32,000 nucleotides of DNA. It comes from Candidatus Nitrosomarinus catalinensis (GTDB lineage: Archaea; Thermoproteota; Nitrososphaeria; Nitrososphaerales; Nitrosopumilaceae). The notes beneath the pieces are model-generated. The model had not been told where the DNA came from, ran no database searches, and saw nothing but the letters and a program-made list of their open reading frames with translations. This document shows, piece after piece, positions 2,001-24,076 of the stretch. The DNA lies in the NCBI RefSeq assembly GCF_002156965.1, contig NZ_CP021324.1, positions 570,681 to 602,680 of the forward strand, in the 5' to 3' direction. Position numbers and translations under genes: made by a program. Numbering within the stretch: the stretch's first letter is position 1; each line of letters starts with the position of its first letter.

Positions 2001-2025
2001 TATCATTAGTTTTTAATTTCTCTAT

Positions 2026-2172: not shown

Positions 2173-2234
2173 TTTTTTAAAATTTTAATGAAAAACCTTA
2201 ATAGATGACTCATCTAATATAGGTCGACCTAAAT

Positions 2235-2810: not shown

Positions 2811-2856
2811 AATTGATTTTATCTAGTTTTTATTCAGGTAGTTTTTAACCTATTTC

Positions 2857-3096: not shown

Positions 3097-3111
3097 AAAC
3101 AATGAATTGTT

Positions 3112-3342
3112 ATGTCCTTAGAGATTAAAGTACGAAATATTGTAAGTAATTTTGAAGGTACTTCATCTGATGAATTTTTAGAAATTTTGGAACAAATCAT
3201 GCTTGAATTCAAGAGTGATTTGACTGTTGAATACCTTAAAGGCAAGGTCAAAAAAATTATTGAACTTTCATCTGAATCAGAAAAGAAAAAACAATGTAAA
3301 TTGCTTTTACCTTACTATGATTGGTATTTGCAAGGGTTGTAG
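3112..3342 (+). CDS. Hypothetical small protein (76 aa)
   Basis: ORF 15 nt after the previous gene on the same strand. The antisense ORF 2991-3251 is judged a shadow. Confidence 0.5.
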   Translation: MSLEIKVRNIVSNFEGTSSDEFLEILEQIMLEFKSDLTVEYLKGKVKKIIELSSESEKKKQCKLLLPYYDWYLQGL

Positions 3343-3344
3343 AA

Positions 3345-3770
3345 TTATTCAGTGTATGCCTTTATTTTTAACAATGCATTATCTATGTCTGGTATATCTT
3401 TTTTAGATTCTTCAACATCTTTTATCAATTTTATAAAATAGTCCTCAGATGTACTTTCTGCCTTCTCAATATCTGATTTTCTACATTCTAATGCTTTTTC
3501 CATAATCTCTAAATTTTGTTCTAATGATTCTGTTGATTTTGGATCAAGTAAAAATTTTTCAATATTTTCTTTAGTGCTTTCTATCATTGGAATTCTTTTT
3601 TTAGCTTGTGATTGCAATACCGGAGCAAACATTGCAGCTGCTTGTTTTACTTCTGGACTGGCATGGATTGTTTGCAATCTTTTTTTATAATGAATTAAAG
3701 ATTTTAAAATTATTTTATATCCTCCCTCTTCTCTAAGATAAATTCCTCCTAACCATATTTTTTCAGACAT
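3345..3770 (-). CDS. Hypothetical protein (141 aa), helical and charged
   Basis: Clean ORF that fills the interval. No motif recognised. Confidence 0.6.
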   Translation of the reverse strand: MSEKIWLGGIYLREEGGYKIILKSLIHYKKRLQTIHASPEVKQAAAMFAPVLQSQAKKRIPMIESTKENIEKFLLDPKSTESLEQNLEIMEKALECRKSDIEKAESTSEDYFIKLIKDVEESKKDIPDIDNALLKIKAYTE

Positions 3771-3850
3771 TTACCAGATTCTTTTTATTGTACTATTATA
3801 GTTTATTTTTTACAATGGTGTTCTCTTTTAAAATTAGTAAACTGTAGAAA

Positions 3851-4075
3851 TTATTTTGTATCGTAATTTTCATTAATTGGTTGAGGATTTCTGTTGATTA
3901 AAAATAGCAAAATTCCTGCAACTGCTACTCCTATACCTGTTAGACCTACAAATGTCCCGATATTTTTTATGGTTTCTAAATTTACATTATCTTCAGAACT
4001 AATTGAATAAAACAAAATTAATCCTAAAATGAACATGCTTCCACCTATGATCATCCATGGCGTCCCTGTTCTCAT
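3851..4075 (-). CDS. Small membrane protein (74 aa, two hydrophobic helices)
   Basis: Two ~20-aa hydrophobic stretches: WMIIGGSMFILGLILFYSI and IGTFVGLTGIGVAVAGILLFLI. Confidence 0.6.
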   Translation of the reverse strand: MRTGTPWMIIGGSMFILGLILFYSISSEDNVNLETIKNIGTFVGLTGIGVAVAGILLFLINRNPQPINENYDTK

Positions 4076-4169
4076 AATTTTGGGTTAAATTTACAATTAA
4101 TAAATACGCATTTGCTAGGCATTATTTTTAATTTTAAGGGCTTATATTTGACAAATCCTATGTGAATTT

Positions 4170-4550
4170 GTGGCCATTAAAAAGAAAATTGATCTTCTTG
4201 AACTAGTTGAAGAAATAGTTGGTTTAAACTCTAAAATGAGATTTGCAGCAATAATTGATTCTAAAGGAAATATTCGAGAGGGTATAATGAAAAAAGGTCA
4301 AACCAGTCTAAATTCTCAAAAAGAAGAAGAGCATTTTTGTCAACAAGTGGCACAAAGACGTGCCATGAGAAAAGAATTTGATCGTTCTTTAGGCAAAGTT
4401 ACATACATTCACGTAGAAAGAGAAAAAGTTTCACAACTTGTCATTTACACAAAACGAAATATTGTGTTTTTCACAATGGAACCTGAAACCCCAATGAGTA
4501 CAAAAATAAAATTAATTACTAAAATTAAAAAAATTACTTCAGATATCTAA
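4170..4550 (+). CDS. Hypothetical protein, possibly with a Roadblock/LC7-like fold
   Basis: GTG start. The string RFAAIIDSKGNIREG resembles the Roadblock/LC7 N-terminal strand pattern. This is a weak call from memory. Confidence 0.55.
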   Translation: MAIKKKIDLLELVEEIVGLNSKMRFAAIIDSKGNIREGIMKKGQTSLNSQKEEEHFCQQVAQRRAMRKEFDRSLGKVTYIHVEREKVSQLVIYTKRNIVFFTMEPETPMSTKIKLITKIKKITSDI

Positions 4551-4581
4551 TTCTTAATTCCAATTAAAATTATTAGAAGTC

Positions 4582-4935
4582 ATGACTTTTCATAAATATC
4601 TTGCAGATTCTAAAATGTTTGAATATGATAAACATTACAGAGAATGCCAACAACAAAACAAACCGTTCATAAAATCTAAAATTAATCCATTGCATGGAAA
4701 TTATTCTGTAAATGTAGATTTGATGACATGCGATTATGTTTTCTCAAAACTTGAATTAAATGAAATAATAAAATTAATTCATGATGAAAAAAAATTTGTA
4801 AATTTAAATTTTAAAAATATATTATATGACTTTAGTATTGATGAAGAAGTAATTTGGATTGACGGTATTTCAATTGAACATATGGATATTATTTGTAATT
4901 CTATTTATGATTTAACACAAAAATATCATGATTAA
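4582..4935 (+). CDS. Hypothetical protein (117 aa)
   Basis: ORF only. Its stop shares a TTAA with the convergent gene 4932-5138. Confidence 0.5.
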   Translation: MTFHKYLADSKMFEYDKHYRECQQQNKPFIKSKINPLHGNYSVNVDLMTCDYVFSKLELNEIIKLIHDEKKFVNLNFKNILYDFSIDEEVIWIDGISIEHMDIICNSIYDLTQKYHD

Positions 4936-5138
4936 AATCTGATCATATTTTTTAAAATTTTATCAATCACTTGAATCTCTTTTTTTCTATCTTTTATGGT
5001 AATTTCATTCCATTTTTTTAAAAACTCTGAATTTTTATCCATTTTTTCTAATTCTTGAACCTGTTTTATTAGATATATTTTGTAATCATGTAGTAAATCT
5101 AGATGTTTATTATGATTTTTTTCAGTCGGTGTTGGCAT
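4932..5138 (-). CDS. Hypothetical coiled-coil protein (68 aa)
   Basis: ORF that overlaps the upstream gene 5122-5361 by 17 nt. It shares a KDRK-containing helix pattern with that gene. Confidence 0.5.
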   Translation of the reverse strand: MPTPTEKNHNKHLDLLHDYKIYLIKQVQELEKMDKNSEFLKKWNEITIKDRKKEIQVIDKILKNMIRF

Positions 5139-5361
5139 TGTCCCATTCTTCCTTTGTCATATCTGGAAATAACTCTCTAATTCTCTTTCTATCTTTTTCA
5201 ATTGCGTCAATTCTACTTTTGAGATGCTCTTTAACTGCAGGTTCCCCTTCATTGTTTATTTCTTGTTCCATATTTGCAATAATTTTTGTCAATGATTTGT
5301 AGTAAATTATATGATTTTGTCTTGACTCTTCTGATTTATCTTCTTTTTTTTCGTCCATCAA
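5122..5361 (-). CDS. Hypothetical coiled-coil protein (79 aa)
   Basis: ORF, first part of a minus-strand run of small genes. It carries an IEKDRKRI motif similar to the downstream neighbour. Confidence 0.5.
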   Translation of the reverse strand: MMDEKKEDKSEESRQNHIIYYKSLTKIIANMEQEINNEGEPAVKEHLKSRIDAIEKDRKRIRELFPDMTKEEWDNANTD

Positions 5362-5421
5362 TTTTTGTTATGTTTCTAGAAATAAGTACTTGATCATTTT
5401 ATTTTTGAACTAGTTTATTCA

Positions 5422-5691
5422 TTATTTTTCATCTTCTACCAATTTTATTCCTAATGGTGTCAATCTGCTAATCCATGGAAAAGATTCGTTTTCACCTTGA
5501 TCAATTCCTCCTCTTACTAAATTTTCATTAATCAGGTATTTGATATTTTCAAAAATTCTTTCATTATTGATCTCTTTCAATTCTGGAAAATTATACATGT
5601 GAAGTTTTGGATTTTCCGATTTAACTTTAGATCTTTTATAAAATTCTTTTAATATGATATTTCTAATTCCTTCATCCGTTAAATTCTTCAT
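5422..5691 (-). CDS. Hypothetical small protein, possible winged helix
   Basis: The string IKYLINENLVRGG...RLTPLGIKLVE resembles the recognition-helix/wing part of small wHTH proteins. Confidence 0.55.
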   Translation of the reverse strand: MKNLTDEGIRNIILKEFYKRSKVKSENPKLHMYNFPELKEINNERIFENIKYLINENLVRGGIDQGENESFPWISRLTPLGIKLVEDEK

Positions 5692-5745
5692 TACTTGGTA
5701 AAAAAAATTTCTTTAATTAAATTTTTAATCTTAAAAAAAATAAAA

Positions 5746-5979
5746 CTAGCAGATTTTTTCACATTCGCATTGTCTACTTACAAACAAATTTTTGAATGAT
5801 TCAAATCGGGATTGAGAAATTTTTGGTTTATTTCTGCCCACTATTCTGAATAGTGAAATTCCGGTTTCTGAACTAGTTCCTTTTAATGCCCATGAACCAT
5901 TTTTCATTAGATATGGTTTTGGATTGTTCATGGTTACTTTTTTTCTTGCTTTGATGTCGTATGCTTCTATTTTTGACAT
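5746..5979 (-). CDS. DUF5679-like small basic protein with the zinc-ribbon cysteines replaced
   Basis: AYDIKARKKVTMNNPKPYLMKNGSWALKGTSSETGISLFRIVG aligns, from memory, to the archaeal DUF5679 pattern (C-x2-C...KNG..ALKG.C-x2-CGT.VFRI). D, A, S and T stand in the four Cys positions. Confidence 0.6.
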   Translation of the reverse strand: MSKIEAYDIKARKKVTMNNPKPYLMKNGSWALKGTSSETGISLFRIVGRNKPKISQSRFESFKNLFVSRQCECEKIC

Positions 5980-6204
5980 TAACTCAATTTAAAAAATTAC
6001 TATTACATATCCATTGTAAAAATTTTCTCATGGTTTAGCTCAAAAAAAAATCTTTTTTTAATTTATTTTGTAATTTTTTAAAATTGTGCGTATTACACTA
6101 ACAAAACAACCATCGATTGTCTTTTTTTGTAAAAACATACGATAGACAAATGGAAGCATGGATGTGTAGGGGATAAGTACTATCAAGAGGCATTCAAATT
6201 ACAG

Positions 6205-6381
6205 ATGAGTACATTAGGTAAAGTTGTAGCAGTAGTCGTTCTTCTATTTGGAGCTTGGTTTGCAATTGTTGGTATTATCATGCCTGAAGTAAGATTTGAT
6301 TATGTTAGGATTGCAACTGTTGTTTTGATAGGTTTTGGAATTGCTATTGCTATGTTGGATAGAAAATTTAATAGAAAATAA
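6205..6381 (+). CDS. Micro membrane protein (58 aa), not in the ORF track
   Basis: Translated by eye: MSTLGKVVAVVVLLFGAWFAIVGIIMPEVRFDYVRIATVVLIGFGIAIAMLDRKFNRK. It has two clear TM helices. A hairpin (TCAAAC-7nt-GTTTGA) lies just downstream. Confidence 0.4.
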   Translation: MSTLGKVVAVVVLLFGAWFAIVGIIMPEVRFDYVRIATVVLIGFGIAIAMLDRKFNRK

Positions 6382-6481
6382 ATCTCAAACGTTTAGAGTT
6401 TGATAAATTAATTTCTGATTTTTAAAAAAGGATGTTTTCTTTCAATACGCCGGTATATATGAGTAAAAATCATGGGTTGGT

Positions 6482-6595
6482 ATGTTCAAAAAAACAATTA
6501 AAAAATTAAAGTTTGTTTCTGGTAAAACCAAAGTAGCAAATGATGTAAACGCATTCAAAAAATCTGAAACACAAAAGATAGGTAAATGTGAATAA
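6482..6595 (+). CDS. Micro-ORF 1 (37 aa, basic)
   Basis: MFKKTIKKLKFVSGKTKVANDVNAFKKSETQKIGKCE. A TATATAT box at 6454-6460 is centred about 26 nt upstream of the ATG. Its stop lies 1 nt before the next ATG. Confidence 0.3.
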   Translation: MFKKTIKKLKFVSGKTKVANDVNAFKKSETQKIGKCE

Positions 6596-6596
6596 A

Positions 6597-6704
6597 ATGA
6601 ATTACAAATGTCGTAATTGTAGTTTCAAATGGAGTGGATATTCTGATACTTTCGAAAAAGTCATAATTCATGAAAGAACTCATACAAAAGGAGATTTGGA
6701 TTAG
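6597..6704 (+). CDS. Micro-ORF 2 (35 aa), C2H2-like zinc-finger mini-protein
   Basis: MNYKCRNCSFKWSGYSDTFEKVIIHERTHTKGDLD has a C-x2-C-x16-H-x3-H pattern. It is separated by 1 nt from both neighbouring micro-ORFs. Confidence 0.35.
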   Translation: MNYKCRNCSFKWSGYSDTFEKVIIHERTHTKGDLD

Positions 6705-6705
6705 T

Positions 6706-6801
6706 ATGGTTATCTGCACTAAATGCTCTGATACACATCATGAACAGTGTATGGGTAAAGCTGGAATGTTTGACTGTACTTGTGTCTGTTTAAAGAAATA
6801 A
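6706..6801 (+). CDS. Micro-ORF 3 (31 aa), Cys/His-rich
   Basis: MVICTKCSDTHHEQCMGKAGMFDCTCVCLKK has 6 Cys and 2 His in 31 aa. Confidence 0.3.
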   Translation: MVICTKCSDTHHEQCMGKAGMFDCTCVCLKK

Positions 6802-6864
6802 TTTAGTTTGTTCTTAAAAAGACTTGTTTTCTAAGATCTACAACATTACGACGTAGTGTCTTTT

Positions 6865-6875
6865 TTATTTTAAAA
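6865..6875 (+). promoter_or_regulatory. Putative archaeal TATA box for the cupredoxin gene (leaderless-type spacing)
   Basis: TTATTTTAAAA is centred about 27 nt upstream of the ATG at 6897. Confidence 0.35.
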
Positions 6876-6896
6876 CTTCTTTGATTAAGTGATAAC

Positions 6897-7505
6897 ATGA
6901 AATTATTGTATGCAGTATTGGTATTGGTCATTACTGGTAGTGCTACTACAACTATTTACTTTACTTACTATACTACTACTTTCTATACTGCCGATGTTTC
7001 CCAATTAGAAAATAAAGTTGCAAGTCTAGAGTCTGAAATTTTAAATTTAAAAAGTTCAATTGACTCTAATTTGAAAAATGCTTATGATGATGGATATTCC
7101 GCAGGAATTGCAGAACAATCCTCTTCAAGTGATGCATTCTCTAGTAATCTCTCATCAAGTAATACTGATGCCGTTTCAACTATTACTAGAACCATAGGCA
7201 CAGTAGAAGAATCTGGATATTCCACGGACTGTGCAGTCTCAATGGGTGGAGATGGATGTTACACACCAGTTACTCTTTCAGCAAATGTTGGTGACAAAAT
7301 TATAATGACTAATACTGATTCAACCGGAGTTCACTCATTTACATCAGGAACTGTTAATGGATTCACTTTATCTTCTGACGGTACATTTGATACAGGTATA
7401 CTGATGTCTGGAGATTCATTTGAATGGACTCCAACTGTTTCTGGCGAGTATCCATACTATTGTATGCTACATGCTTGGCAGGTTGGAACTATTATTGTGA
7501 ATTAA
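6897..7505 (+). CDS. Membrane-anchored blue copper protein (cupredoxin, amicyanin/plastocyanin-like) with Gln at the axial-ligand position
   Basis: It has an N-terminal TM helix, a short coiled coil, a Ser-rich linker and then a cupredoxin domain. The ligand pattern is H146 (TGVHSF) ... C189-x2-H192-x2-Q195 (YYCMLHAWQVGTIIV). Confidence 0.85.
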   Translation: MKLLYAVLVLVITGSATTTIYFTYYTTTFYTADVSQLENKVASLESEILNLKSSIDSNLKNAYDDGYSAGIAEQSSSSDAFSSNLSSSNTDAVSTITRTIGTVEESGYSTDCAVSMGGDGCYTPVTLSANVGDKIIMTNTDSTGVHSFTSGTVNGFTLSSDGTFDTGILMSGDSFEWTPTVSGEYPYYCMLHAWQVGTIIVN

Positions 7506-7627
7506 TTTAATTCTGATCATATTCACACTGGCCATATTTTTACAAATTGTTTAGTTAGAGAGAAAAGAATTACTGTAGTTGAATGGAATTAGAATTGCTT
7601 AATATTGTAAAATAATTTTATAATTGT

Positions 7628-7900
7628 ATGAAAATTCTAATTGATGAAATGGATGATGGCTGGGATGAGAAACTTAAGGAATTGGGATTTGATGCTTATA
7701 GTGTTAAAAAATTACGCATGGATGGCCATAAATTAAGAACAGACTATTCGGTGATAAATTACGCTAAAGAAAATAATATGATTTTGGTTACTCGTGATAC
7801 TGAAAGTGGTCAGGCATGTGAGGAAAATGATTTGCCTTACGTGCTCTTAGATAATGCCTCAATTTTTAACATTGTTTTGAATAAATTAAAAAATTATTAA
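7628..7900 (+). CDS. PIN-like / Mut7-C-like small protein (DUF5615-like)
   Basis: MKILIDEMDDGW...ELGFDAYSV...INYAKENNMILVTRDTE follows the pattern I recall for DUF5615/Mut7-C PIN-like proteins (M.fLiDEnl...L...Gh.a......d.ei...A...g.ilvT.D.dF). Confidence 0.65.
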   Translation: MKILIDEMDDGWDEKLKELGFDAYSVKKLRMDGHKLRTDYSVINYAKENNMILVTRDTESGQACEENDLPYVLLDNASIFNIVLNKLKNY

Positions 7901-8475
7901 TTTATGTGATTTTGATTTTTTCTTCCAATTTGTAAATTATTAATTATTTCATTCAAAAAATCCTCTTCAGGTTGATGTATTATGCTATTCATTATCCTTT
8001 CCCAACAATCACTGATTCTTCTTTTAATTTGTGAAAACATCTGATCTTTTTTGAATGTGGGATAATATGATAGTAATTTCATAATGCTGTCTGCTGATTG
8101 TATTGCATGTATTAGATCAATTGTATTTCTTAAACGTTCAAGTTTCAAAAAATTTTTCTCCTTACTAATTTCTTCAAATTTTTCTATTTCTTCAAAAATT
8201 AAGTTTACTTCACTATACAAATTCTTTAATTGATTATTAACAGATTCATACAAATTAATTAATTCATATTCTATATGTGACCTACTATGTATGGTCCGTG
8301 CAATTTCCCCTGATTCTACTAATTGACCTATTTCTCTATAGACTGTTTTTTCATTACCTACTTTTTTGATAACTCTTTTTGCTAGTTCATTACTTCGAAT
8401 TTTTCCACTTTCGTTTAAAATTCTGATAACTTCTGTTCTGATAATTTCTGAATTTTTATCCATGATTTCTCTCAT
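7897..8475 (-). CDS. Putative winged-helix regulator with a helical C-terminal domain (192 aa)
   Basis: The string VIRILNESGKIRSNELAKRV...VYREIGQLVESGEIART is a typical wHTH. It has the same architecture as 2235-2810 and 18514-19077. Confidence 0.65.
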   Translation of the reverse strand: MREIMDKNSEIIRTEVIRILNESGKIRSNELAKRVIKKVGNEKTVYREIGQLVESGEIARTIHSRSHIEYELINLYESVNNQLKNLYSEVNLIFEEIEKFEEISKEKNFLKLERLRNTIDLIHAIQSADSIMKLLSYYPTFKKDQMFSQIKRRISDCWERIMNSIIHQPEEDFLNEIINNLQIGRKNQNHIN

Positions 8476-8710
8476 CTGATGTTTGATATTTGCTTAACAC
8501 TTTTGGTTCTCCATTTTCGGAAATTTCTTTAATTATTGACTCCAAAATATTGATGCCTTGTTCAATTGGCTCTTTTTCGTTTATTTTATTTTTCAATTTT
8601 TGCTTTAGTGTCATTTTTTCATTATTGATAAATCGTAACAAACTTACCTCATTTCCCATGTTCAAATTGATAAAAAATTCGACATATTCTTGAGCAGAAC
8701 TAATTACCAT
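8456..8710 (-). CDS. Hypothetical protein (84 aa)
   Basis: ORF upstream of the wHTH gene, overlapping it by 20 nt. The antisense ORF 8490-8693 is judged a shadow. Confidence 0.5.
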   Translation of the reverse strand: MVISSAQEYVEFFINLNMGNEVSLLRFINNEKMTLKQKLKNKINEKEPIEQGINILESIIKEISENGEPKVLSKYQTSDERNHG

Positions 8711-8788
8711 TCCTTATTTTGCTCATTCCTTGTATTTGTTACAATCTTTCCAAATTAGGTTTATTTACTATTTTTAGAAATTTTAACT

Positions 8789-9049
8789 ATGGATTCATGT
8801 GACCGTCGTATTCGTGCCTACAAAAACGGAAAAACAATGGAAGAGTGCAAATCTATTGCCGAATCACTAATTCCTCAATTTAAAGAAAATATCAAAAATA
8901 ATCAGAAAATTCTATGGAGTGAGATTATGGATGTAGTTGATCATGATGAATTAATTTACAAATTATCTTTGAAATACCTTCGACGAGATGGATATGATAT
9001 CGGGAATTATAAAATTCCTGAAGTCAAGGCATTCATCTCTCAAAATTAA
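8789..9049 (+). CDS. Hypothetical protein (86 aa)
   Basis: ORF only. Its 3' end overlaps the convergent membrane-protein gene by 17 nt. Confidence 0.5.
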   Translation: MDSCDRRIRAYKNGKTMEECKSIAESLIPQFKENIKNNQKILWSEIMDVVDHDELIYKLSLKYLRRDGYDIGNYKIPEVKAFISQN

Positions 9050-12684: not shown

Positions 12685-12933
12685 ATGACAAATTTTGAAA
12701 AAATTTATGCTAAAGTGGCATTAAAAATAATCAAGCGTTGTCATGGTGCTATTAAAATTACAAAACATGGTAAAATTGTTGAAGTTTATGATGTAAAACG
12801 TCATATCTGGAGTGACGGACTTGCAGGTTTGATAATTAAAGAAGAATGTCGTCTGGCAAATTTGAAGGAATGGGAGTTTGCAAATGTCCGAGGTTATGTG
12901 ATCAAGGAATTACTGTCAAAATCTGACAATTGA
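12685..12933 (+). CDS. Hypothetical protein (82 aa)
   Basis: ORF only. Confidence 0.5.
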   Translation: MTNFEKIYAKVALKIIKRCHGAIKITKHGKIVEVYDVKRHIWSDGLAGLIIKEECRLANLKEWEFANVRGYVIKELLSKSDN

Positions 12934-13247: not shown

Positions 13248-13523
13248 TCACATAAGATGATTAAAAGTTGATACTTGTCGGATTAGGTGTGGTTCTTTTA
13301 GCAAAATTGTATCGTCTTTAGTTGATGATAATTCTGGTTTGATTATTTTGTCTGTTGTAATCACAATCAATGCTTCACATCTTGTACATAGTATTGTTCT
13401 TCCTGATGATCTGTCCTCTCTGATCAGACCTGACTCTAATCTATCGGGTTTTTCACATGTTGGACATAATCTTGGTTCTTTTTCTATGCTGATAATCTCT
13501 TTAATGAATATCATTTTCGACAT
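13248..13523 (-). CDS. Small zinc-ribbon protein (91 aa)
   Basis: CPTC...(20 aa)...CTRC forms a four-Cys ribbon. It is the first gene of the operon divergent from the giant gene. Confidence 0.6.
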   Translation of the reverse strand: MSKMIFIKEIISIEKEPRLCPTCEKPDRLESGLIREDRSSGRTILCTRCEALIVITTDKIIKPELSSTKDDTILLKEPHLIRQVSTFNHLM

Positions 13524-13583
13524 ATCTTTTCCTCATTTTGTGTACAGAATAATGTTTGTAATGTTAATTGGTATCAGCAATCC

Positions 13584-13618: not shown

Positions 13619-13858
13619 TAGAATGAAAGGTATTCAACATATTCCCCTATCTAACCAATTAACTAGGAGTATCTTTTCCGTTCTAACATAAGATGTTATC
13701 CCTATCATTGACTTTTTGTGCCTAGAATCACTAATAATAATTTCTTATTTTCATAATTCACTGTTAGATTGGAAATGGAGTTCCATGTTATGAGGATTAG
13801 AATGGTTGTTAATTCCTGCTCTAAATCCTTATGTAAATTAAATTCATGAGATTCTGTT

Positions 13859-16800
13859 ATGGGTTTGTTTGGAAGGAAAAAGACAGATAAAGAAAAAGAA
13901 GAGGACCAAAAAATGAAGATTAAGAAAAGACCATTCAAAGAGGCTAGAGAGTTTGTTCACAAATTAAAATTAAAAAATAGTTTAGAATGGAGAGAATATG
14001 CTAAATCAGGAGAAAAACCTGATGACATTCCATCAGACCCTCGTTCTTACAAAACAGAATGGAAGGGAATGGGAGATTGGTTGGGAAATGGGAATATCCA
14101 TCCAAAGTACTGGTATTCTGAAGACCACTACATGCAATTCAAAGAAGCCAGGGAATTAGTTAGCAAAAAGAAATTCAAATCAAACAAAGAATACAGAAAA
14201 TGGGTAAGAAGTGGTAAAGCACCCAAAGGACTACCAATAAATCCAGATAGTGAAAGACAATGGAAAGAGAATTGGACAAATTGGCCTGATTTTTTAGGAA
14301 AGGGATATGTGTCATACCAAGAAGCAAAAAAACTCGTCAAACAACTAAATTGTGAAACTGAAGCAGATTGGGAACGAATTTCTAAAGATTTTAAAATCAA
14401 AAACAAACTACCGATTAGCACAAGAACATATTATACAAAATTGGGAATGTGGACAAATTGGCCTGATTTTTTAGGGAAAGAAACCAAAAAAAATACTCCA
14501 AAAACTGCAACATTCAAAGAATGTCAAGATTTTGCTATACAAAACGGAATTGGTGATTTAACCCAATGGCATAATTGGTATAAAAATGGAAAATTACCTT
14601 TGAATTTTCCTAGTAATTTAGATCAATATTTCAGAAAGACGAAACAATGGAAAAATGCTGATCATTTCTTTAATAGAAAACCAAAAAAATTTCTTCCTTT
14701 TGAACAACAATTAGTAATTGCACAAAAATATTGTAAAAAAAATCACATTACAAAAAAAGAAGAATGGTTTGAACATTTTCAAACAAATCCATTGCCTGAA
14801 GGACTACATAAGGCACCTAATCGAATAAAATTATCAAAAAATCAGAAATTTAGGTGGCATGTTTGGTTAGGAATAGATGAAAACGATCCATTAATGAGAA
14901 ACAGTAAATCAATTTATGCATCATACAAACAACATCAAAAATTCGCCATACAAAATAACATAACAACAGGGGGACAATGGCACAAATTCATGGAAAAAAA
15001 TAAAGATAAAATTCCATTAAATATTTCACTACATCCAGATTCATATTTTATTAAAAAGGGATTATGGCCAAAAAATGGCTGGTATGGATTCCTAAATCAA
15101 GAAGAAAACCCATGGTGTACTTATGAAGATGCAAAAAAATATCTCAAACCATTTAATCTTGTTTCAAAACGAGATTACAAAAAATGGTTATCACAAAACA
15201 AAACTATCAAAATAAATGGCAAAAAATTACCTAATGCACCTGAATCTGTTTATTCAAAACAAAGTGTTTGGATAGATTGGTTTGATTTTCTAGGTAGAGA
15301 AGATCTACGAATGACATTAGAAAATACAAAAAAACTTGTCAAGGCACTCATAGACAGTAAAATTATTCATCAAGCAAATCCAGAGGATCAAGTAGTTTTT
15401 GCAAAATTATTAATGATCAATGAAATTTATGGTCGTAACAATACAAAAAGTAGTAAATTTCTAAAACAACTACAAAGTGCTTCTCTATCCCCATCAGGTT
15501 TAAAAAAAATAATACGTTACGCAGAATCTGATTCATTAGAATTACCTGACATTTCAAAAGATGTAACGATTGATCCTGAACAATTATCTGAAGAGAGAAA
15601 AATTGTAAACAAAAATCAAAGTGTTTCAGAAAAAGATGATGGTCTATTAACGGATTATTCTCCTCAACCTACAAAAGATATTCTTAAATTTACAGATATT
15701 GAAAAATCTTTACTAATTTCTATTGACGAAGAATCAATGAAATTTTTTGTAACATTTCTTGTTCACAAGTTATGGAATAGAGCATTTCTAAAAGAAGAAG
15801 AGACAGTATCGGATGTAAAAGGAGAAGGTAAAACTGGTAATGATTTTCATGATAAAGTAATTACAACATTTCTCGATGAATACAAGGGAACAAAGGAATT
15901 AAAAATTCCTAAAGGATATGCATTTCCACATGAACCATACCTTATGCAACGATATGTTGCATACAAGGCTACAAGTGTAAAATCTCGATACTTTGCAAAT
16001 ACATCTGAGCCTGGAGCAGGAAAAACACTTTCTGCAATACTGGCTTCAAGAGTAATGAATGCAAAAACAACACTAGTCCTATGTCCAAAGAATGTGATTG
16101 AACAATGGGGAGATAAAATAAAAGAAATTTTTCCCGATTCTGAAGTAATTATACGGAATAAAGTATTTTCAATTTCAAAATCTGCAAAAAATCCTAGATA
16201 TTTGATTATAAATTATGATATATTCAATCAACAAACATCAGGCAAAAAAATTTCCATATTTAAAAAAATAAAAATTGATTTTGTCATTATGGATGAAATT
16301 CAATTTGCAAAGGCTCCATTAAAAAAGAATATTGATGAAGAGACATCTCGATCAAGACGATTACATTTGGAAAATTCGTTAAAATACATTAAAGAAAATA
16401 ATCCTAAATCAAGAAGACTGGGACTTTCTGCAACTCCAATAATTAATACCTTGAAAGAAGGACGCTCACTTTTAGAATTACTATCAGGTAGAAACCACAA
16501 TCATGTAAAAACAGATGATAGGTTTTTCTTTAACGGAGTAGGAATGTATGAACAGTTAACCAATATATCCATACGTCAAAGAAATGGTCAAAATTTTAAA
16601 ATTGAAAAACATCCTTCAGTAATTGTAGATGCTCCAATCTCATCACCATTTTCAGAATTAGAACAAAATCCACTACTCATAGAACTTGAATTGACAGATG
16701 CAAGAATTTCTGAAATAATTAAAAAAATTGAAGGTCAAACCATCATCTATACAGAATATGTTGGTAAGGGAAAAATAGATTCCAATATTGTGAAAAAACT

Positions 16801-17920
16801 AACAACCGCATTAGATGATAAGCAAATCACGTGGGGGCTGTATACTGGAACAAGAAAATATGAACTGGAAGACTTTTCACCTAAAAATAAATTTCAAGTT
16901 TTAATCTGCTCCAGTCCAATTTCAGTAGGTGTTGACGGACTACAACTGTCATGTAATCGAATAATTTTCAACTCACTTCCATGGACACATGCTCAATATG
17001 AGCAAATTATAGGCAGAATTGCACGAAAAGGACAGACAAAACCGATAGATGTTTTTCATATTAATGCCAGAATTCCAGTAACCAAGAAGGGAAGAACACA
17101 TTATATCGAATATGATCAAGGAAAATTAAATCTAATTAAAAGAAAACAGACTCTAGCAGATTGTGCTGTTGATGGAATTCTACCTCGAGATAATAAAATA
17201 ATTACAAAAACAAGAGCAATGAAAGAAGTTGTAAAATGGTATAAGAGATTAGAAAACGAAGATTATTCTTTTGTATTTGTTGAAGAGCTTGATGTTCCAG
17301 AAATTGTTGAAAGAGAGCCAACTGTAAGAAAACTGGGCAGATTAGAAGAGATGCATAAGCAGGTGTTTCATGTACATTCCAAAAAAGTTCATGAAATGCT
17401 AAAAGAAGATCCGCAATGGGTAATAGAGTATCACAATGAATATCGTAAATCTCGACAAACGTGGGATGTTATTCCTTATGAGTACTACATTAAGAAATTG
17501 AATGAAATGTCTCCTAGGTTAAAGATAGGAGATTTTGGATGTGGTGAAGCAAAAATCCGAGAGTCACTTGGAGACGATAGGGTCAAAAGCATTGATCATG
17601 TTGCAATAGAATATCAAGACATTGCAAAAACAAAAAACATCATCTCGTGTGATATGGTAGATGTATCCGAATACATCAAAGATGGCGCATTGGATGTTGC
17701 AGTATTTTCACTTTCTATGTGGGGCAATAATTGGAAGTCTTACTTTAAAGAGGCAAACAGATGTTTGGCTAAAAATGGCTTCTTGTTTGTATGTGAAACA
17801 ACTGCCAAAATGAATTCGTGGTTAAAGGGATTGGATGATACTCTCAAAGAAGAGGGTTTTGATGTACACTCCAAAATAAAAATTGAACAGTTCACTTTCA
17901 TTGAAGCACGTAAAATCTAA
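13859..17920 (+). CDS. Giant multidomain protein: 7 Trp-rich tandem repeats + SNF2-family ATPase + Rrp8-like SAM-dependent methyltransferase
   Basis: This is an uninterrupted 1353-codon ORF. SNF2 motifs present: EPGAGKT, LVLCPKNVIEQW, VIMDEIQ, LGLSATPIINTLKEGRSLLELL, IIFNSLPWTHAQYEQIIGRIARKGQ. Methyltransferase motifs present: IGDFGCGEAKI and LDVAVFSLSMWGNNW..EANRCLAKNGFLFVCE. The exact start is uncertain, because Met19 at 13913 is an alternative. Confidence 0.9.
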   Translation: MGLFGRKKTDKEKEEDQKMKIKKRPFKEAREFVHKLKLKNSLEWREYAKSGEKPDDIPSDPRSYKTEWKGMGDWLGNGNIHPKYWYSEDHYMQFKEARELVSKKKFKSNKEYRKWVRSGKAPKGLPINPDSERQWKENWTNWPDFLGKGYVSYQEAKKLVKQLNCETEADWERISKDFKIKNKLPISTRTYYTKLGMWTNWPDFLGKETKKNTPKTATFKECQDFAIQNGIGDLTQWHNWYKNGKLPLNFPSNLDQYFRKTKQWKNADHFFNRKPKKFLPFEQQLVIAQKYCKKNHITKKEEWFEHFQTNPLPEGLHKAPNRIKLSKNQKFRWHVWLGIDENDPLMRNSKSIYASYKQHQKFAIQNNITTGGQWHKFMEKNKDKIPLNISLHPDSYFIKKGLWPKNGWYGFLNQEENPWCTYEDAKKYLKPFNLVSKRDYKKWLSQNKTIKINGKKLPNAPESVYSKQSVWIDWFDFLGREDLRMTLENTKKLVKALIDSKIIHQANPEDQVVFAKLLMINEIYGRNNTKSSKFLKQLQSASLSPSGLKKIIRYAESDSLELPDISKDVTIDPEQLSEERKIVNKNQSVSEKDDGLLTDYSPQPTKDILKFTDIEKSLLISIDEESMKFFVTFLVHKLWNRAFLKEEETVSDVKGEGKTGNDFHDKVITTFLDEYKGTKELKIPKGYAFPHEPYLMQRYVAYKATSVKSRYFANTSEPGAGKTLSAILASRVMNAKTTLVLCPKNVIEQWGDKIKEIFPDSEVIIRNKVFSISKSAKNPRYLIINYDIFNQQTSGKKISIFKKIKIDFVIMDEIQFAKAPLKKNIDEETSRSRRLHLENSLKYIKENNPKSRRLGLSATPIINTLKEGRSLLELLSGRNHNHVKTDDRFFFNGVGMYEQLTNISIRQRNGQNFKIEKHPSVIVDAPISSPFSELEQNPLLIELELTDARISEIIKKIEGQTIIYTEYVGKGKIDSNIVKKLTTALDDKQITWGLYTGTRKYELEDFSPKNKFQVLICSSPISVGVDGLQLSCNRIIFNSLPWTHAQYEQIIGRIARKGQTKPIDVFHINARIPVTKKGRTHYIEYDQGKLNLIKRKQTLADCAVDGILPRDNKIITKTRAMKEVVKWYKRLENEDYSFVFVEELDVPEIVEREPTVRKLGRLEEMHKQVFHVHSKKVHEMLKEDPQWVIEYHNEYRKSRQTWDVIPYEYYIKKLNEMSPRLKIGDFGCGEAKIRESLGDDRVKSIDHVAIEYQDIAKTKNIISCDMVDVSEYIKDGALDVAVFSLSMWGNNWKSYFKEANRCLAKNGFLFVCETTAKMNSWLKGLDDTLKEEGFDVHSKIKIEQFTFIEARKI
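13928..15298 (+). repeat. Seven tandem coding repeats (~58-70 aa each) ending in a W-x-x-W-x-D-F-L-G type motif
   Basis: Units start near aa 24, 91, 150, 217, 278, 353 and 419. An identical 26-nt DNA block, TGGACAAATTGGCCTGATTTTTTAGG, occurs at 14273-14298 and 14450-14475, which is 177 nt apart. Confidence 0.8.
15926..17158 (+). other. SNF2/Swi2-type SF2 ATPase core (domain of the giant ORF)
   Basis: Walker A is at 16007-16027 and DEIQ at 16292-16303. LSATP lies within aa 855-859 (nt 16421-16435), and the Q..GR..R.GQ motif is at 17003-17035. Confidence 0.8.
17411..17917 (+). other. Rrp8-like (Methyltransf_8-like) class I SAM methyltransferase domain of the giant ORF
   Basis: Motif I, IGDFGCGEA, is at 17525-17551. 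The pre-motif YHNEYRKSRQTWDVIPYEYYIKKL and post-motif DVAVFSLSMWGNN / EANRCLAKNGFLFVCE match remembered Rrp8 strings. Confidence 0.65.
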
Positions 17921-18339
17921 AAAAACTCACTCTGCCCTAGAGTCCTTATGAAATGGGGAATGCTCATGTTTAAAACCAGAAATAATTCTCAAAAAACAGC
18001 TTGATCAATTGGTAAATATCAGAAATACACAACATAATGTATGAAAATGACTGATAGTCTATCGGTTAGCAGTCAGATTAAGAAAAAAATTTGCTTTACT
18101 GTGATCATATTTTAAATTGTTAAATTATTTTTTAGAACAGGAATAAGATCTTAAACTCACCAATTAACAATTTGTTGTATTTTTTATTGAAAATATATTT
18201 TTCTTAATATTATTTTATTTGATATAGTTATAATTTTGAATATTTAGAAAATATATTGAAATTATTACATAAAAATCTTAAATACTTATACATTGTATGA
18301 AATATGATGTCGTTAGTTCTAAAAACTAATGAATAAAGT

Positions 18340-18432
18340 GCGTAGCCCCGCAGAACGAAAAAGGCACTCAGGCGTTTGACGCTTGACCACAAGAGGAAAT
18401 CTCTTATTGTTCTGCAATTAAGCGGGCTTCGC
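18340..18432 (+). ncRNA. Candidate structured RNA of unknown class (three-way junction)
   Basis: This is a GC-rich island in very AT-rich spacer. The closing stem pairs 18340-18356 with 18409-18432. Hairpin A is TCAGGCG-TTTGA-CGCTTGA (18368-18386), with one G-U that is only valid on the + strand. Hairpin B is AAGAG-GAAAT-CTCTT (18391-18405). Confidence 0.4.
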
Positions 18433-18513
18433 CATTTAATTTCCTATTTGATCTGTTCATGCAAATTTTTTACCTAAACATATTAGAAATCCAATACCAT
18501 CCATGTTAGTACG

Positions 18514-19077
18514 ATGGTAATGATTCATGATGATTACATTTTATTTTGTACTTCTCAGTGGGTTGAACTAAAAGACATAATTGAAAGATGTGGTGGTAAT
18601 GAATCTGAAGTAGTTGAATCTATTCAAAGACTAGCCTATATGGGATTTCTTGAATCTAGAACTTTAAAAAATAATTTATTTTATAAAAAACTTGATACGC
18701 CTCAAACTCATGATCAATTTTCATCAATGATGGATAATTTCTTAGAATACCAAAAATTTGAAATTGACCTGATAAAAAAGATTCCAACTATAATGTTCAG
18801 TGATGGTGGTCGATTTGGTTTTAGTAAAGATGGATTAAAATTGCTTGAACATATTCAAGAAGAAATTAATAGAATAACTATGGTAATTTCTAAAATTGAT
18901 CATTTTGATAAAATTAGACTTTTGCAGCATCCAATAGCACAACAAAGAATCAAACGATTACAAAATCACATTAATCGAATAATGGACACAATGTTGGATT
19001 CTTACAAGGATGTTCGTTCTAATGTTGCACTTCAAGAATATTTTAAAACACATACAGGAAAATTAAACACTGTTTGA
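18514..19077 (+). CDS. Putative winged-helix protein with a helical C-terminal domain (187 aa)
   Basis: The string VELKDIIERCGGNESEVVESIQRLAYMGFLESR is wHTH-like. It is the third member of the ~190-aa architecture seen at 2235 and 7897. Confidence 0.65.
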   Translation: MVMIHDDYILFCTSQWVELKDIIERCGGNESEVVESIQRLAYMGFLESRTLKNNLFYKKLDTPQTHDQFSSMMDNFLEYQKFEIDLIKKIPTIMFSDGGRFGFSKDGLKLLEHIQEEINRITMVISKIDHFDKIRLLQHPIAQQRIKRLQNHINRIMDTMLDSYKDVRSNVALQEYFKTHTGKLNTV

Positions 19078-19081
19078 ATAG

Positions 19082-20194
19082 TTATGTAACTATCTCATCA
19101 AGACGATCTTCTTCTTGAGCTCTTTTAATTTCCATTGCAATTCTTCGTCCGACTCCAAATGTTTGACCATACTGGTATTTTGTATATGGGCTAGTTGTTG
19201 CAACTATGGGGTTTCCTGGAACTCTTAATGAAACATCATAAACAATTAATTCTAAATCTTTAGTAATGACACTTTGAAGTGAAAATGGACCAATTATGCC
19301 TGGAGCATATTCTTTTTTTACTGCTGAGACAAACTTGTCTCCCATTTTTAGAACTTTTTCAAGCAAAGATTCTCTAATACTTGCTGGAGTATGGCCTACC
19401 TCAATATTTTGTAAATCAATATCCATCTCCAATTGCTCTTTTGCTGGTAATGCATTATAGTCATGAATGTTTGTTTGAAGTCTTCTTTCGATTCCAATGA
19501 AGTCAACTTGATTTGAAATAGGTGTGTGAAAGAAATTAAAATTCATGTAAGTTCCAATTGCTAATTCTTCTATACTTGCTTTTTCTAAATCCTTTTTTGC
19601 AATAACTCCTTGTTTGATTTTCTGTTCTGATTTTTCTTTGTAATCTTTGTATGATGATACCGTAAAAAATGCTCTTTCTAAAGGTCTATTTTTTTCTTGA
19701 ACCTTTACTATGGATGGTTTGTTGATTCTTTTTGGGTCTTTGAATAATTTTGGATATTTGATTCTGGCTTTTTCTAAAAGATAGTATTGTCCTTTTTTAG
19801 CAGTTCTTTCTTCAGCTTGAAATAATTTCCTATTTCCAAAAATTGGAACTTTGAATTTATCTTCAATTGTTTTGTAACCCAGATAAACTGTGAGAGACCT
19901 GTGTGGAACAACAATTGTGTTTGAATCTCTTAACATTTTTTGATTTTTAGCTGATGCCATGTCTTTGAATTTATCTAATACTACTATTTGGTCTGCAATT
20001 CTGTTGAATCTTTGATAAGGTCCTTCTCTACCTTTTTGGCAAAAAACAGTTGTTTCAAAATTTTCATCCTTTGCTCCGTCCATTACTTCTAAAGCAGAAT
20101 GACTTCCTAGTACTCCTATTTTTACATCTGAATAATCATTAACTATTTTCTTGATCTCAGAACTTTTGATCATATTATGCCTAAATATTGGCAT
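19082..20194 (-). CDS. purP: 5-formaminoimidazole-4-carboxamide ribonucleotide (FAICAR) synthetase, archaeal PurP (ATP-grasp)
   Basis: The N-terminus IGVLGSHSALEVMDGAKDENFETTVFCQKGRE..YQRF matches the remembered PurP signature. The ~370-aa length fits. Confidence 0.92.
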   Translation of the reverse strand: MPIFRHNMIKSSEIKKIVNDYSDVKIGVLGSHSALEVMDGAKDENFETTVFCQKGREGPYQRFNRIADQIVVLDKFKDMASAKNQKMLRDSNTIVVPHRSLTVYLGYKTIEDKFKVPIFGNRKLFQAEERTAKKGQYYLLEKARIKYPKLFKDPKRINKPSIVKVQEKNRPLERAFFTVSSYKDYKEKSEQKIKQGVIAKKDLEKASIEELAIGTYMNFNFFHTPISNQVDFIGIERRLQTNIHDYNALPAKEQLEMDIDLQNIEVGHTPASIRESLLEKVLKMGDKFVSAVKKEYAPGIIGPFSLQSVITKDLELIVYDVSLRVPGNPIVATTSPYTKYQYGQTFGVGRRIAMEIKRAQEEDRLDEIVT

Positions 20195-23284: not shown

Positions 23285-24076
23285 TTAAGTGTTCAACTTT
23301 TCTCTTTGTTTACGCTCAATGAACAACATGCCTGCAAAATATAATCCAATCATTGGCCCTGCAACAAACATCATTGTAACACCTGTTCCATCAGGAGTAA
23401 TGATTGCACCAAAAATTATGATGATCACAATTGCATACCTTGCATTTTTTCTCCAAAAATCTTTGTCTACCATACCTGACATTGAAATTGCATACATGAT
23501 TAATGGAAGTTGAAAAGAAAATCCAAATGCCAATAAAAATTGTAATACAAAAGTTACAAATTCCATTACGTTTAGGAATGTAACTAGTCCAGCTGAATCC
23601 CCGTATCGATATAAAAATTCTAAAATATATGGAATTACAAAATTATATGAAAATACACATCCTGCAATAAACAATCCTAATGCAGGTAGTGAGATATTTC
23701 TACTAACGTTAATTTCATTTTCTTTCAAAGCTGGTTTGATAAATCCAACAAATTCTCTGATAATTACTGGCATTCCAATTACCATTCCTACTAATGCTGA
23801 AACATACATTTGAGCAAAGAAAGCTTGTCCTGGTGCAGTTTGAATTAATTGTACATCTGTAGGAACTAAATTCTCTCTCATATGGTTTGTAATTTGAGCT
23901 GCAATATTGTTTTGAGGATCCGGTGATGGATAGTACAGTGTAACTTCTCCAATGTTAATTGGTTCTGCATGAAATGTCAAAACAACAACTGTGATGATTC
24001 CAATTACTATTACTATTCTTAGAAGTCTTTTTCTTAATTCCTCAAGATGTGTGTTGATACTTTCTAAATTTGACAT
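23285..24076 (-). CDS. tatC: Twin-arginine translocase subunit TatC
   Basis: It has the HLEELRKRLL N-terminus, six TM segments and ~260 aa. It lies immediately upstream of tatA on the same strand. Confidence 0.93.
   Translation of the reverse strand: MSNLESINTHLEELRKRLLRIVIVIGIITVVVLTFHAEPINIGEVTLYYPSPDPQNNIAAQITNHMRENLVPTDVQLIQTAPGQAFFAQMYVSALVGMVIGMPVIIREFVGFIKPALKENEINVSRNISLPALGLFIAGCVFSYNFVIPYILEFLYRYGDSAGLVTFLNVMEFVTFVLQFLLAFGFSFQLPLIMYAISMSGMVDKDFWRKNARYAIVIIIIFGAIITPDGTGVTMMFVAGPMIGLYFAGMLFIERKQREKLNT

Follow-up and report, generated by a model that had tools for sequence, protein, structure and literature searches.

The 32,000-nucleotide stretch of the Candidatus Nitrosomarinus catalinensis genome analysed here (the window) harbors a single open reading frame in which INT_rpt repeats, a SNF2-fold ATPase and an Rrp8-type methyltransferase are combined in one polypeptide. 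On balance, we favor the view that this gene encodes a horizontally mobile helicase-methyltransferase, a DarB-like dyad in which an Rrp8-type enzyme takes the place of the N6-adenine methyltransferase, and, as part of the same explanation, that it was left stranded, or became domesticated, as a lone gene inserted into a variable intergenic hotspot. The gene, its three modules and the limits of the 4.5-kb insertion in which it resides are positioned in the window as follows:

13654..13663, forward strand: left-hand one of the two 10-bp direct repeats, ACCAATTAAC, marking where synteny with congeners breaks off on this side
13664..13858, forward strand: non-coding DNA on the 5′ side of the insert, presumed to contain the promoter and occurring once in the genome
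13859..17920, forward strand: three-module open reading frame of 1,353 amino acids (ORF translation, Pfam, more than 400 collinear homologues)
13928..15298, forward strand: N-terminal INT_rpt-type repeat array of ~60 amino acid Trp-rich units (aa ~24-480; BLASTP)
15926..17173, forward strand: SNF2-fold ATPase core (aa ~690-1105; Pfam, AlphaFold2, Foldseek)
17339..17914, forward strand: Rrp8/Methyltransf_8-type SAM-dependent methyltransferase domain (aa 1161-1352; Pfam, phmmer, AlphaFold2)
17921..18158, forward strand: non-coding DNA on the 3′ side of the insert, likewise occurring once in the genome
18159..18168, forward strand: right copy of the 10-bp direct repeat ACCAATTAAC, where synteny with congeners resumes

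All 23 columns that are invariant across 63 homologues are kept in the window protein, including Walker A and B, motif VI and the DxGxG SAM loop. The initial annotation placed an Rrp8-type methyltransferase signature at 17411-17917, and the four motifs it quoted are all present in the translation of 13859-17920 and inside that interval, namely the pre-motif Y-H-N-E-Y-R-K-S-R-Q-T-W-D-V-I-P (Y1191, H1192 to P1206), the motif I variant IGDFGCGEA (D1225-A1231) and the blocks DVAVFSLSMWGNN and EANRCLAKNGFLFVCE. The identity of the domain stands, but its start does not, the Pfam boundary lying ~25 residues earlier (aa 1161, nt 17339). The isolated domain matches Methyltransf_8 (PF05148; Bitscore: 117; cut-off: 27 bits; e-value: 1.6e-33), with Methyltransf_11 as the runner-up Pfam family (Bitscore: 22; e-value: 3e-4). 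When compared with all PDB chains by phmmer, the sole match at an e-value below 0.01 is human RRP8/nucleomethylin (2ZFU; e-value: 1.9e-17), the other match being noise (e-value: 0.29). The same structure is the top fold match to an AlphaFold2 model of the domain (pLDDT: 91.6; TM: 0.82-0.84; rmsd: 1.8-2.0 Å; 192 columns), the match extending to the N-terminal helical extension before the Rossmann core, while the second-best PDB fold match has a TM of 0.56. Close Rrp8-like structures were absent among the viral proteins of BFVD (best TM: 0.61). The reciprocal HMM comparison likewise bears out the assignment, as the fused-family HMM gives eukaryotic Rrp8 159-189 bits, versus 37-40 bits for generic Nitrosopumilaceae methyltransferases. 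On the Pfam scores and the 2ZFU match the domain is Rrp8-type rather than UbiE/Methyltransf_11-type, and thus neither of the outcomes named in advance as speaking against the initial annotation, comparable matches to unrelated methyltransferase families or placement in a common bacterial clade with no affinity to Rrp8, was observed.

Rrp8 is commonly treated as a eukaryote-specific nucleolar protein which installs m1A at a conserved helix 25.1 adenine of the large-subunit rRNA, and the eukaryotic Rrp8/nucleomethylin binds chromatin besides methylating rRNA. About 25 columns reach at least 85% conservation in eukaryotic Rrp8 as well as in the fused family; of 30 columns conserved at this level within each group, 28 carry the same residue in both, and the window protein likewise keeps 28 of the 30 (exceptions: N to H and L to M). 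The common columns include Y-H, W, P, DxGCG, the motif II D, C, L.L.G.N, E.A.R.L...G, E and GF, several of which are missing in generic methyltransferase outgroups. The Y-H...W...P pre-motif helices, DFGCG SAM loop and motif II Asp of Rrp8 (2ZFU, PF05148) are shared with the window protein, as are the CD(M) and (D)VAVF(S/C)LSLMG(T/N)N blocks and EA.R.L..GG.L. Two positions differ from eukaryotic Rrp8 in a group-specific manner, namely residue 1199 (Arg against Val) and the residue following the motif II Asp (His against Leu). The proteins further differ in that Rrp8 has a disordered basic N-terminus, whereas the window protein has a SNF2 motor and INT_rpt repeats.

The initial annotation also proposed fusion to a chromatin-type ATPase. 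A SNF2-fold ATPase is indeed present, with Pfam matches to SNF2-rel_dom (e-value: 9.8e-10), Helicase_C (3e-9) and ResIII (6e-9), and all of the top 50 Foldseek PDB matches to its AlphaFold2 model (pLDDT: 90.1) are Snf2 remodelers. The core has the two RecA-like lobes and Snf2-type helical inserts of the SWI2/SNF2 superfamily, and motifs I, II, III and VI are intact: Walker A (G719/G721/K722/T723), DE (812-813) and motif VI (Q1049/R1053/R1056) can be assigned, and the GxGKT, DE, SAT and QxxGRxxR motifs invariant in the family are all present. It is followed by a family-specific linker, TLADCAVDG. The two-lobe core fold is held in common with the eukaryotic remodelers Chd1, ISWI, Ino80, CSB, Mot1 and Rad54 (Foldseek e-value: 1e-19 to 1e-15; TM by target up to 0.71), but sequence identity to these is only 12-17%, the SNF2-rel_dom match is no stronger than the value given above, and their chromo, HAND-SANT-SLIDE and HSA accessory domains are lacking.

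Pfam INT_rpt gives no match to the window protein itself at an e-value of 0.1 or below, and homology of its N-terminal array was therefore established through related proteins. The array aligns with the repeat region of a homologue on a 378-kb viral contig (L017; BLASTP e-value: 2e-45), which in turn matches PF14882 (3.5e-8), and with separate INT_rpt proteins of another locus (L002; 5e-38). Homologous ~60 amino acid Trp-rich units occur in the INT_rpt (PF14882) 'integrase repeat-containing' proteins of Nitrososphaeria and phages. Elsewhere these repeats are encoded by separate genes located just upstream of an 880 amino acid helicase-methyltransferase, whereas in the window protein they are fused into one polypeptide.

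The archaeal host recognized in the initial annotation is confirmed by neighboring genes including those for aEF-2, PurP and TatC, and its housekeeping proteins group with those of Nitrosopumilus sp. at identities of at least 90%. Within this background the gene sits alone on a 4.5-kb insertion bounded on either side by a 10-bp direct repeat. Homology to three congeners (G161, G156 and G159) stops exactly at the left ACCAATTAAC copy, and window positions 13664-18168 have no counterpart in the TrkH-PurP gap of these three genomes by blastn. In six congeners this gap spans 2.5-3.0 kb, compared with 7.4 kb in the host. A single ACCAATTAAC copy is present at the empty sites, and the filled site has one on each flank. 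The repeat occurs four times in the 32 kb, against 0.1 expected, although in AT-rich DNA such a 10-bp repeat may reflect microhomology. No integrase or transposase is encoded within the insert. A multi-copy transposon can be ruled out, as neither end of the insert recurs elsewhere in the 1.36-Mb genome, and putative terminal inverted repeats, for which two alternative imperfect end alignments (~15/19 positions) exist in this AT-rich DNA, are not regarded as established. No Rfam match at an e-value of 0.1 or below was found within 11-21 kb, and no tRNA genes occur in the window. In the congener G159, a restriction-modification pair sits in a neighboring hotspot.

Strong matches (above 100 bits in the genome survey) are present in two of 151 Nitrosopumilaceae species genomes and 5/301 Nitrososphaeria genomes, and no Asgard or other archaeal lineage beyond Nitrososphaeria is represented among the loci found. 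Relatives are instead carried by phages, plasmids and integrated elements. The same three-module architecture is encoded on the 378-kb viral contig, while a tailed-phage contig (L018) carries the helicase-methyltransferase module with portal, head protease and holin genes. Another homologue is located in an integrase-bearing island (L015), that of L002 lies in an island with Mrr, PIN, UvrD/PDDEXK, SWI2_SNF2 and N6_N4 methyltransferase genes, and a 92%-identical homologue adjoins an HNH gene. Plasmid carriers include a MOBP plasmid of Crinalium and Rhodococcus plasmids, one copy being situated beside FtsK/SpoIIIE and SSB genes, and the module also occurs in Babeliales, Nocardia and Bacteroides. 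An ESM Atlas cluster with the architecture of the window protein has 1498 members, with Bacteria (56%) and, as the commonest phylum, Uroviricota, these shares being derived from 122 annotated members only; the clusters nearest to it comprise bacterial and phage SNF2+N6_Mtase proteins. The representative search returned 1840 clusters at 50% identity (e-value of 0.001 or below), and 88 of the best 150 are helicase-fused. A profile-driven locus search found relatives in IMG/VR with narrower alignment, and GenBank phages yielded only weak helicase-fragment matches, in Pseudomonas phages. Furthermore, the same methyltransferase clade is also found joined to another helicase, an unrelated one of ResIII/DEAD type, indicating that coupling of helicase and methyltransferase recurs. 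All-against-all ORF clustering across 34 loci recovered no recurrent neighbor gene other than the gene itself, INT_rpt ORFs and antisense artefacts, which argues that the protein acts alone. A candidate conserved downstream partner was rejected, as the ~180 amino acid ORFs that come after the gene in three genomes lack homology to one another (14-19% identity).

This combination recalls the methylase-helicase dyad of phages and conjugative elements, in which a SWI2/SNF2 ATPase is joined to an N6-adenine DNA methylase, with P1 DarB as precedent (PMC5512222). Both the dyad and the window protein covalently couple a SNF2-type motor to a SAM methyltransferase, both families are carried by phages, plasmids and integrated elements, and neither has a dedicated nuclease partner. 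They differ in the methyltransferase, which is N6_Mtase/MTS-type in the dyad and Rrp8-type (PF05148) here, in the domain order, helicase then methyltransferase in the window protein, and in the N-terminal INT_rpt or zinc-ribbon modules. No N6_Mtase or MTS match was obtained for the window protein with Pfam, and its motif IV region reads DVAVFSLSMWG; the (D/N/S)PP(Y/F/W) motif of amino-methylating DNA methylases is absent from the Rrp8 fold, and by these features the protein falls outside the N6-adenine DNA methylases. In the mechanism we propose, the INT_rpt repeats would bind either a partner protein or nucleic acid, the SNF2-fold motor would translocate on double-stranded nucleic acid driven by ATP, and the Rrp8-type Rossmann domain would methylate the polymer being tracked, probably DNA rather than RNA, with SAM as the donor. 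Following the logic of P1 DarB, the mark may then protect or label the element's own DNA against host restriction. As m1A in duplex DNA is normally a lesion, a DNA target would require methylation of a different atom or an unusual role.

To our knowledge, all characterised relatives of the domain are rRNA m1A methyltransferases, and together with the shared columns and the fold match through the N-terminal helical extension this could point to a functional equivalent of Rrp8, introducing m1A or another base methylation in large-subunit rRNA or tRNA, with the SNF2-like module as an RNP/RNA remodeler and the repeats docking on the ribosome. We nevertheless consider this quite unlikely, since the scarcity of strong matches and the insertion in a hotspot are unlike a core ribosome-modification enzyme, the motor has the fold of Snf2 dsDNA translocases, and the family is found on phages and plasmids. 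A gene of this kind could also serve host defence instead of counter-defence, as a modification or sensing module consisting of one protein or of loosely associated ones, for which the SNF2-like DrmD of DISARM and the helicase-methylase components found in BREX and type ISP systems are the comparators. The best NCBIfam matches of the helicase part are indeed DrmD, a PLD-type anti-phage protein and DpdE, the L002 copy lies amid the Mrr, PIN, UvrD/PDDEXK, SWI2_SNF2 and N6_N4 methyltransferase genes listed above, and the restriction-modification pair of G159 occupies a nearby hotspot. However, these matches reach 25-36 bits against cut-offs of 500-1100 bits, no nuclease or effector is fused to the protein or recurs beside its gene, and phages themselves encode members, so that a host-protective role appears rather doubtful.

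As to its origin, the initial annotation offered acquisition from a eukaryote or virus, or an archaeal precursor of a eukaryotic ribosome-biogenesis and chromatin factor. In the methyltransferase tree the window protein falls in a Nitrososphaeria clade (support: 99/94), outside eukaryotic Rrp8, which forms a monophyletic clade (100/100) on a long stem with no prokaryotic or viral sequence inside. Recent transfer from a eukaryote, which the standing of Rrp8 as a eukaryotic nucleolar protein and the ~32% identity to animal and protist Rrp8 might suggest, is contradicted by this separation and by the many hundreds of 50%-identity clusters in the family, and is exceedingly improbable. Vertical inheritance from an archaeal precursor of eukaryotic Rrp8 and SNF2 chromatin factors fares little better and is highly improbable: the 4.5-kb insertion is missing at the congeners' site, the distribution is sporadic, with no Asgard carrier, and the eukaryotes group with bacterial-type fused clades (95/87), apart from the archaeal clade. 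In its favor, a tree in which the Nitrososphaeria clade is joined to eukaryotes is not rejected by the AU test (p 0.66). When generic Nitrosopumilaceae methyltransferases serve as the outgroup, rooting involves a 3.5-substitution branch, and the constrained topologies uniting eukaryotes with the archaeal clade or with the outgroup are both unrejected (p 0.66 and 0.62) and slightly higher in likelihood than the free search. Given these alternative rootings, eukaryotic Rrp8 may or may not descend from the mobile family. While Rrp8 is near-universal in eukaryotes and methylates 25S/28S rRNA, the gene described here is rare and mobile, and a presence limited to two of 151 genomes of the family and five of 301 of the class, by insertion, is not that of an Rrp8 ortholog. 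Its occurrence as a rare horizontal insertion, also found on phages and plasmids, suggests that it is probably neither a ribosome-biogenesis enzyme nor a vertical archaeal ancestor of Rrp8. Of the proposed sources, the viral one survives in modified form, given the same architecture in tailed phages, the 378-kb viral contig and plasmids.

Our literature search retrieved no paper describing a fusion of an Rrp8-type methyltransferase with a helicase, and none joining Rrp8 with Thaumarchaeota. A query for Rrp8, SNF2 and phage returned unrelated papers, one for Rrp8, archaea, methyltransferase and helicase gave general reviews unrelated by titles and abstracts, and nothing was found on Methyltransf_8 or 'integrase repeat'; Rrp8 has no occurrences in the dyad paper (PMC5512222). 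The closest relatives of Rrp8 form a large, diverse family, almost always helicase-fused (88 of the best 150 clusters), whose carriers are phages, plasmids and integrated elements in bacteria and ammonia-oxidising archaea. This family is a concrete candidate source of Rrp8, and one that is open to testing. It would extend the helicase-methylase dyad to a chemistry probably other than standard m6A. More tentatively, SNF2-coupled Rrp8-type enzymes may constitute an undescribed class of mobile-element proteins placing a non-canonical DNA mark during translocation, with eukaryotic Rrp8 perhaps descending from a phage or plasmid form whose helicase was lost no later than the emergence of eukaryotes, although we regard this as doubtful. 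For annotation, the gene should be read not as evidence for eukaryote-like ribosome biogenesis or chromatin in Thaumarchaeota but as accessory, horizontally acquired cargo.

The largest open reading frame of the window encodes P0001, a protein combining INT_rpt repeats, a SNF2-fold ATPase and an Rrp8-type methyltransferase:

13859-17920, + strand: P0001 open reading frame, 1353 aa, with the Rrp8-type domain at its 3′ end
Residues ~24-480: N-terminal repeats, about seven Trp-rich units of ~60 aa
Residues ~690-1105: helicase (Pfam: SNF2-rel_dom, ResIII and Helicase_C, all ~1e-9)

The motifs from which the initial annotation recognised an Rrp8-type signature (Y-H-x-x-Y-R-x5-W-x3-P, IGDFGCGEA, DVAVFSLSMWGNN and EANRCLAKNGFLFVCE) are all found in P0001. 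Residues 1161-1352 match Methyltransf_8 in Pfam (PF05148; e-value: 7e-32 in the whole protein), with the isolated domain reaching 1.6e-33 (117 bits), whereas Methyltransf_11 attains only 3e-4; the best NCBIfam match is BioC (5e-4). Among all PDB sequences the sole real match (e-value: 1.9e-17) is human RRP8/nucleomethylin, represented by its methyltransferase domain (2ZFU), to which the AlphaFold2 domain model (pLDDT 91.6) aligns with a TM-score of 0.82-0.84 (rmsd ~2 Å; next solved structure: 0.56). Reciprocally, an HMM of the fused family, comprising the related helicase-methyltransferase proteins, scores eukaryotic Rrp8 at 159-189 bits, well above the ~37-40 bits of generic Nitrosopumilaceae methyltransferases. 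Furthermore, P0001 retains 28 of the 30 columns that reach at least 85% conservation in eukaryotic Rrp8 as well as in the fused family, several of which (Y-H, W, Cys after motif II, L.L.G.N and GF) are missing from the generic outgroup. As these Pfam, PDB sequence, fold, HMM and conserved-column tests concur, the Rrp8 signature is confirmed as genuine and specific, and neither of the outcomes that the initial annotation named as refuting it was observed.

The proposed fusion to a chromatin-type ATPase is likewise borne out: for a 714-residue model of the helicase and methyltransferase (pLDDT 90.1), built on 63 homologues, all of the best 50 PDB matches are Snf2-family remodelers (Chd1, ISW1, Ino80, CSB, Mot1, Rad54 and others). 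P0001 conforms in all 23 columns that do not vary among these 63 proteins, among them GxGKT, DE, the SAM loop DxGxG and the arginines of QxxGRxxR, and on this basis both catalytic modules look intact. The repeats receive no INT_rpt call from Pfam. They can be aligned with the repeats of a viral homologue (e-value: 2e-45), a protein that itself matches INT_rpt (PF14882; 3.5e-8), and with INT_rpt proteins encoded on their own in another Nitrosopumilus (e-value: 5e-38). An unfused version of P0001 occurs at two marine Nitrosopumilus loci (L002, 7620-9931; L003, 241-1401), where one or two separate ~385-aa INT_rpt genes lie directly upstream of an 883-aa helicase-methyltransferase, and a downstream 174-aa ORF ends in one further INT_rpt unit.

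The genome carrying the window is a single 1.36 Mb contig, and the housekeeping products of the window (aEF-2, PurP, TatC and PurL/Q/F/C) cluster at ≥90% identity with Nitrosopumilus sp. proteins. The TrkH-to-PurP interval spans 7.4 kb here; six congeners have 2.5-3.0 kb at this position, and a seventh has 34.6 kb. In alignments to three congeners homology ends at 13663 and restarts at ~18153-18206, the P0001 gene being the sole gene in the intervening 4.5 kb, and a 10-bp repeat marks both junctions:

13654-13663: ACCAATTAAC, insert junction
18159-18168: ACCAATTAAC, insert junction

The empty sites of two congeners (G159 and G161) each hold a single copy of ACCAATTAAC, for which chance predicts 0.1 occurrences per 32 kb. 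Both non-coding insert ends are single-copy in the genome, and no integrase or transposase is encoded within the 4.5-kb insert. Candidate terminal inverted repeats were too weak to claim. An inverted copy of the repeat lies in the native intergenic region at 13563-13572, 90 bp upstream of the 13654-13663 copy, suggesting that the insertion target may have been one arm of a palindromic pair resembling an operator; the minus strand carries a fourth copy (23954-23963). Congeners also conserve the small ORFs flanking the insert (12685-12933 and 13248-13523), which are native genes outside any accessory block.

The non-coding stretch 18206-18445 (GC-rich core ~18330-18432) shares 73-76% identity with G161, G156 and G159, has no Rfam match at E ≤0.1 and is not a tRNA; its position between two variable spots would fit a small RNA gene used as an integration target. 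A second strain-specific insertion (18446-19082) holds a 187-aa ORF (18514-19077) for which neither DNA nor tblastn comparison gives a match in four congeners; there, the ncRNA-like element lies ~60 bp from PurP. The equivalent spot in G159 (L013/L014) is occupied by ~30 kb encoding a DDE transposase, a D12 N6A methylase together with a HaeIII-type endonuclease, and a MAM-domain protein of 1255 aa. Window positions 2001-9000, with a GC content of 26-29% versus 34-35% in flanking core genes and short ORFs lacking Pfam matches, may constitute a further variable or accessory region.

Strong PF05148 matches (>100 bits) occur in 2/151 species-representative genomes of the host's family, a tally including three unpublished genomes (G077, G092 and G093; 0/3); the remaining matches are generic (<35 bits), comparable to those that this search yields in the control genomes, E. 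coli included. The fused-family profile (E ≤1e-20) detects 5/301 genomes of the class and 2/67 of the genus. The family abounds in metagenomes, which contribute more than 400 collinear helicase-methyltransferase proteins of 744-2368 aa, the named sources among the best 120 listed all being Nitrosopumilales. An exhaustive representative search returned 1840 clusters at E ≤0.001, with a P0001-type helicase in 88 of the best 150. In a second architecture, an unrelated N-terminal ResIII/DEAD helicase is joined to the P0001-type methyltransferase, so the coupling arose, or was shuffled, more than once. Its metagenomic members (P0159, P0175, P0181, P0242, P0265 and P0269) have a ~500-aa middle region between the two, with HA helicase-associated repeats in P0269. 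In helicase homologues from Chlamydiia, Planctomycetales, Arthrobacter, Armatimonadetes and Terriglobia (L037-L041, L043, L045 and L046), the match ends at ~residue 493 of the 714-residue module, and a different C-terminal domain presumably replaces the methyltransferase.

A 92%-identical homologue adjoins an INT_rpt and an HNH gene, another archaeal copy belongs to an island that borders core genes and encodes a phage-type integrase, and a third, its repeats encoded by two separate upstream genes, is found amid Mrr, PIN, UvrD/PDDEXK, SWI2_SNF2 and N6_N4 methylase genes. The Nitrosotenuis aquarius copy has yet other neighbours, and no other gene was found to adjoin the fused gene repeatedly. 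In IMG/VR the full module is carried by a tailed-phage contig of 34 kb that also encodes a portal, a head protease and a holin, and a 378-kb viral contig encodes the same three modules as P0001 (INT_rpt, helicase and Methyltransf_8; 7e-44). PLSDB places the module on a MOBP plasmid of Crinalium and two Rhodococcus plasmids, one plasmid copy adjoining FtsK/SpoIIIE and SSB genes, and species genomes with the module include Nitrosocosmicus, Nitrososphaeraceae, Babeliales, Rhodococcus, Nocardia and Bacteroides. In the ESM Atlas, the cluster of this architecture comprises 1498 members (56% Bacteria; Uroviricota is the commonest phylum), and the closest other clusters are SNF2+N6_Mtase proteins. The P0001 gene is a rare, horizontally inserted family member, and the suggestion of a eukaryote-like ribosome or chromatin factor in an archaeon is not supported.

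SNF2 motors track double-stranded nucleic acid, and characterised Rrp8 enzymes act on rRNA, yielding m1A. Because of the latter activity, two rivals are retained: an RNA target, which we regard as quite improbable, and a role in host defence, which appears unlikely. We somewhat favor a mobile-element origin for P0001 and a function as a methyltransferase that translocates by means of ATP, the INT_rpt array being its putative binding module; both the substrate and the modified atom we infer. This proposal draws on the carriers, self-sufficiency and motor-plus-methylase layout shared with the 'methylase-helicase dyad' (archetype P1 DarB) of phages, plasmids and conjugative elements, in which SNF2 motors often occur as fusions to, or neighbours of, adenine DNA methylases and which is thought to methylate incoming element DNA, shielding it from restriction (PMC5512222). 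The fused family differs in its Rrp8-type methyltransferase; the dyad paper makes no mention of Rrp8, and a literature search found no paper describing such a helicase fusion. The family is large and represents a known kind of mobile-element enzyme in an apparently undescribed variant form.

In a methyltransferase-domain tree (IQ-TREE; 65 rows, 208 columns, LG+C20+F+G4 PMSF), P0001 groups in one clade (99/94) with sequences from Nitrososphaeria and metagenomes, and eukaryotic Rrp8 is monophyletic (100/100) on a long stem, comprising animals, fungi, ichthyosporeans, Capsaspora, one haptophyte, one chrysophyte and metagenomic sequences. A 97-row quick tree recovers the same P0001 clade and eukaryotic monophyly, and neither tree places a prokaryotic or viral sequence among the eukaryotes, which excludes recent transfer from a eukaryote, one of the origins initially proposed. 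When rooted on the outgroup, the former tree groups eukaryotes with bacterial-type fused clades (95/87) rather than the archaeal clade. Trees constrained to unite eukaryotes with the archaeal clade (p-AU 0.66), or with the outgroup, rendering the fused family monophyletic (p-AU 0.62), are not rejected, and both have likelihoods slightly above the free search. Given an outgroup branch of 3.5 substitutions per site, Rrp8 as sister of the mobile family and Rrp8 as derived within it both fit the data.
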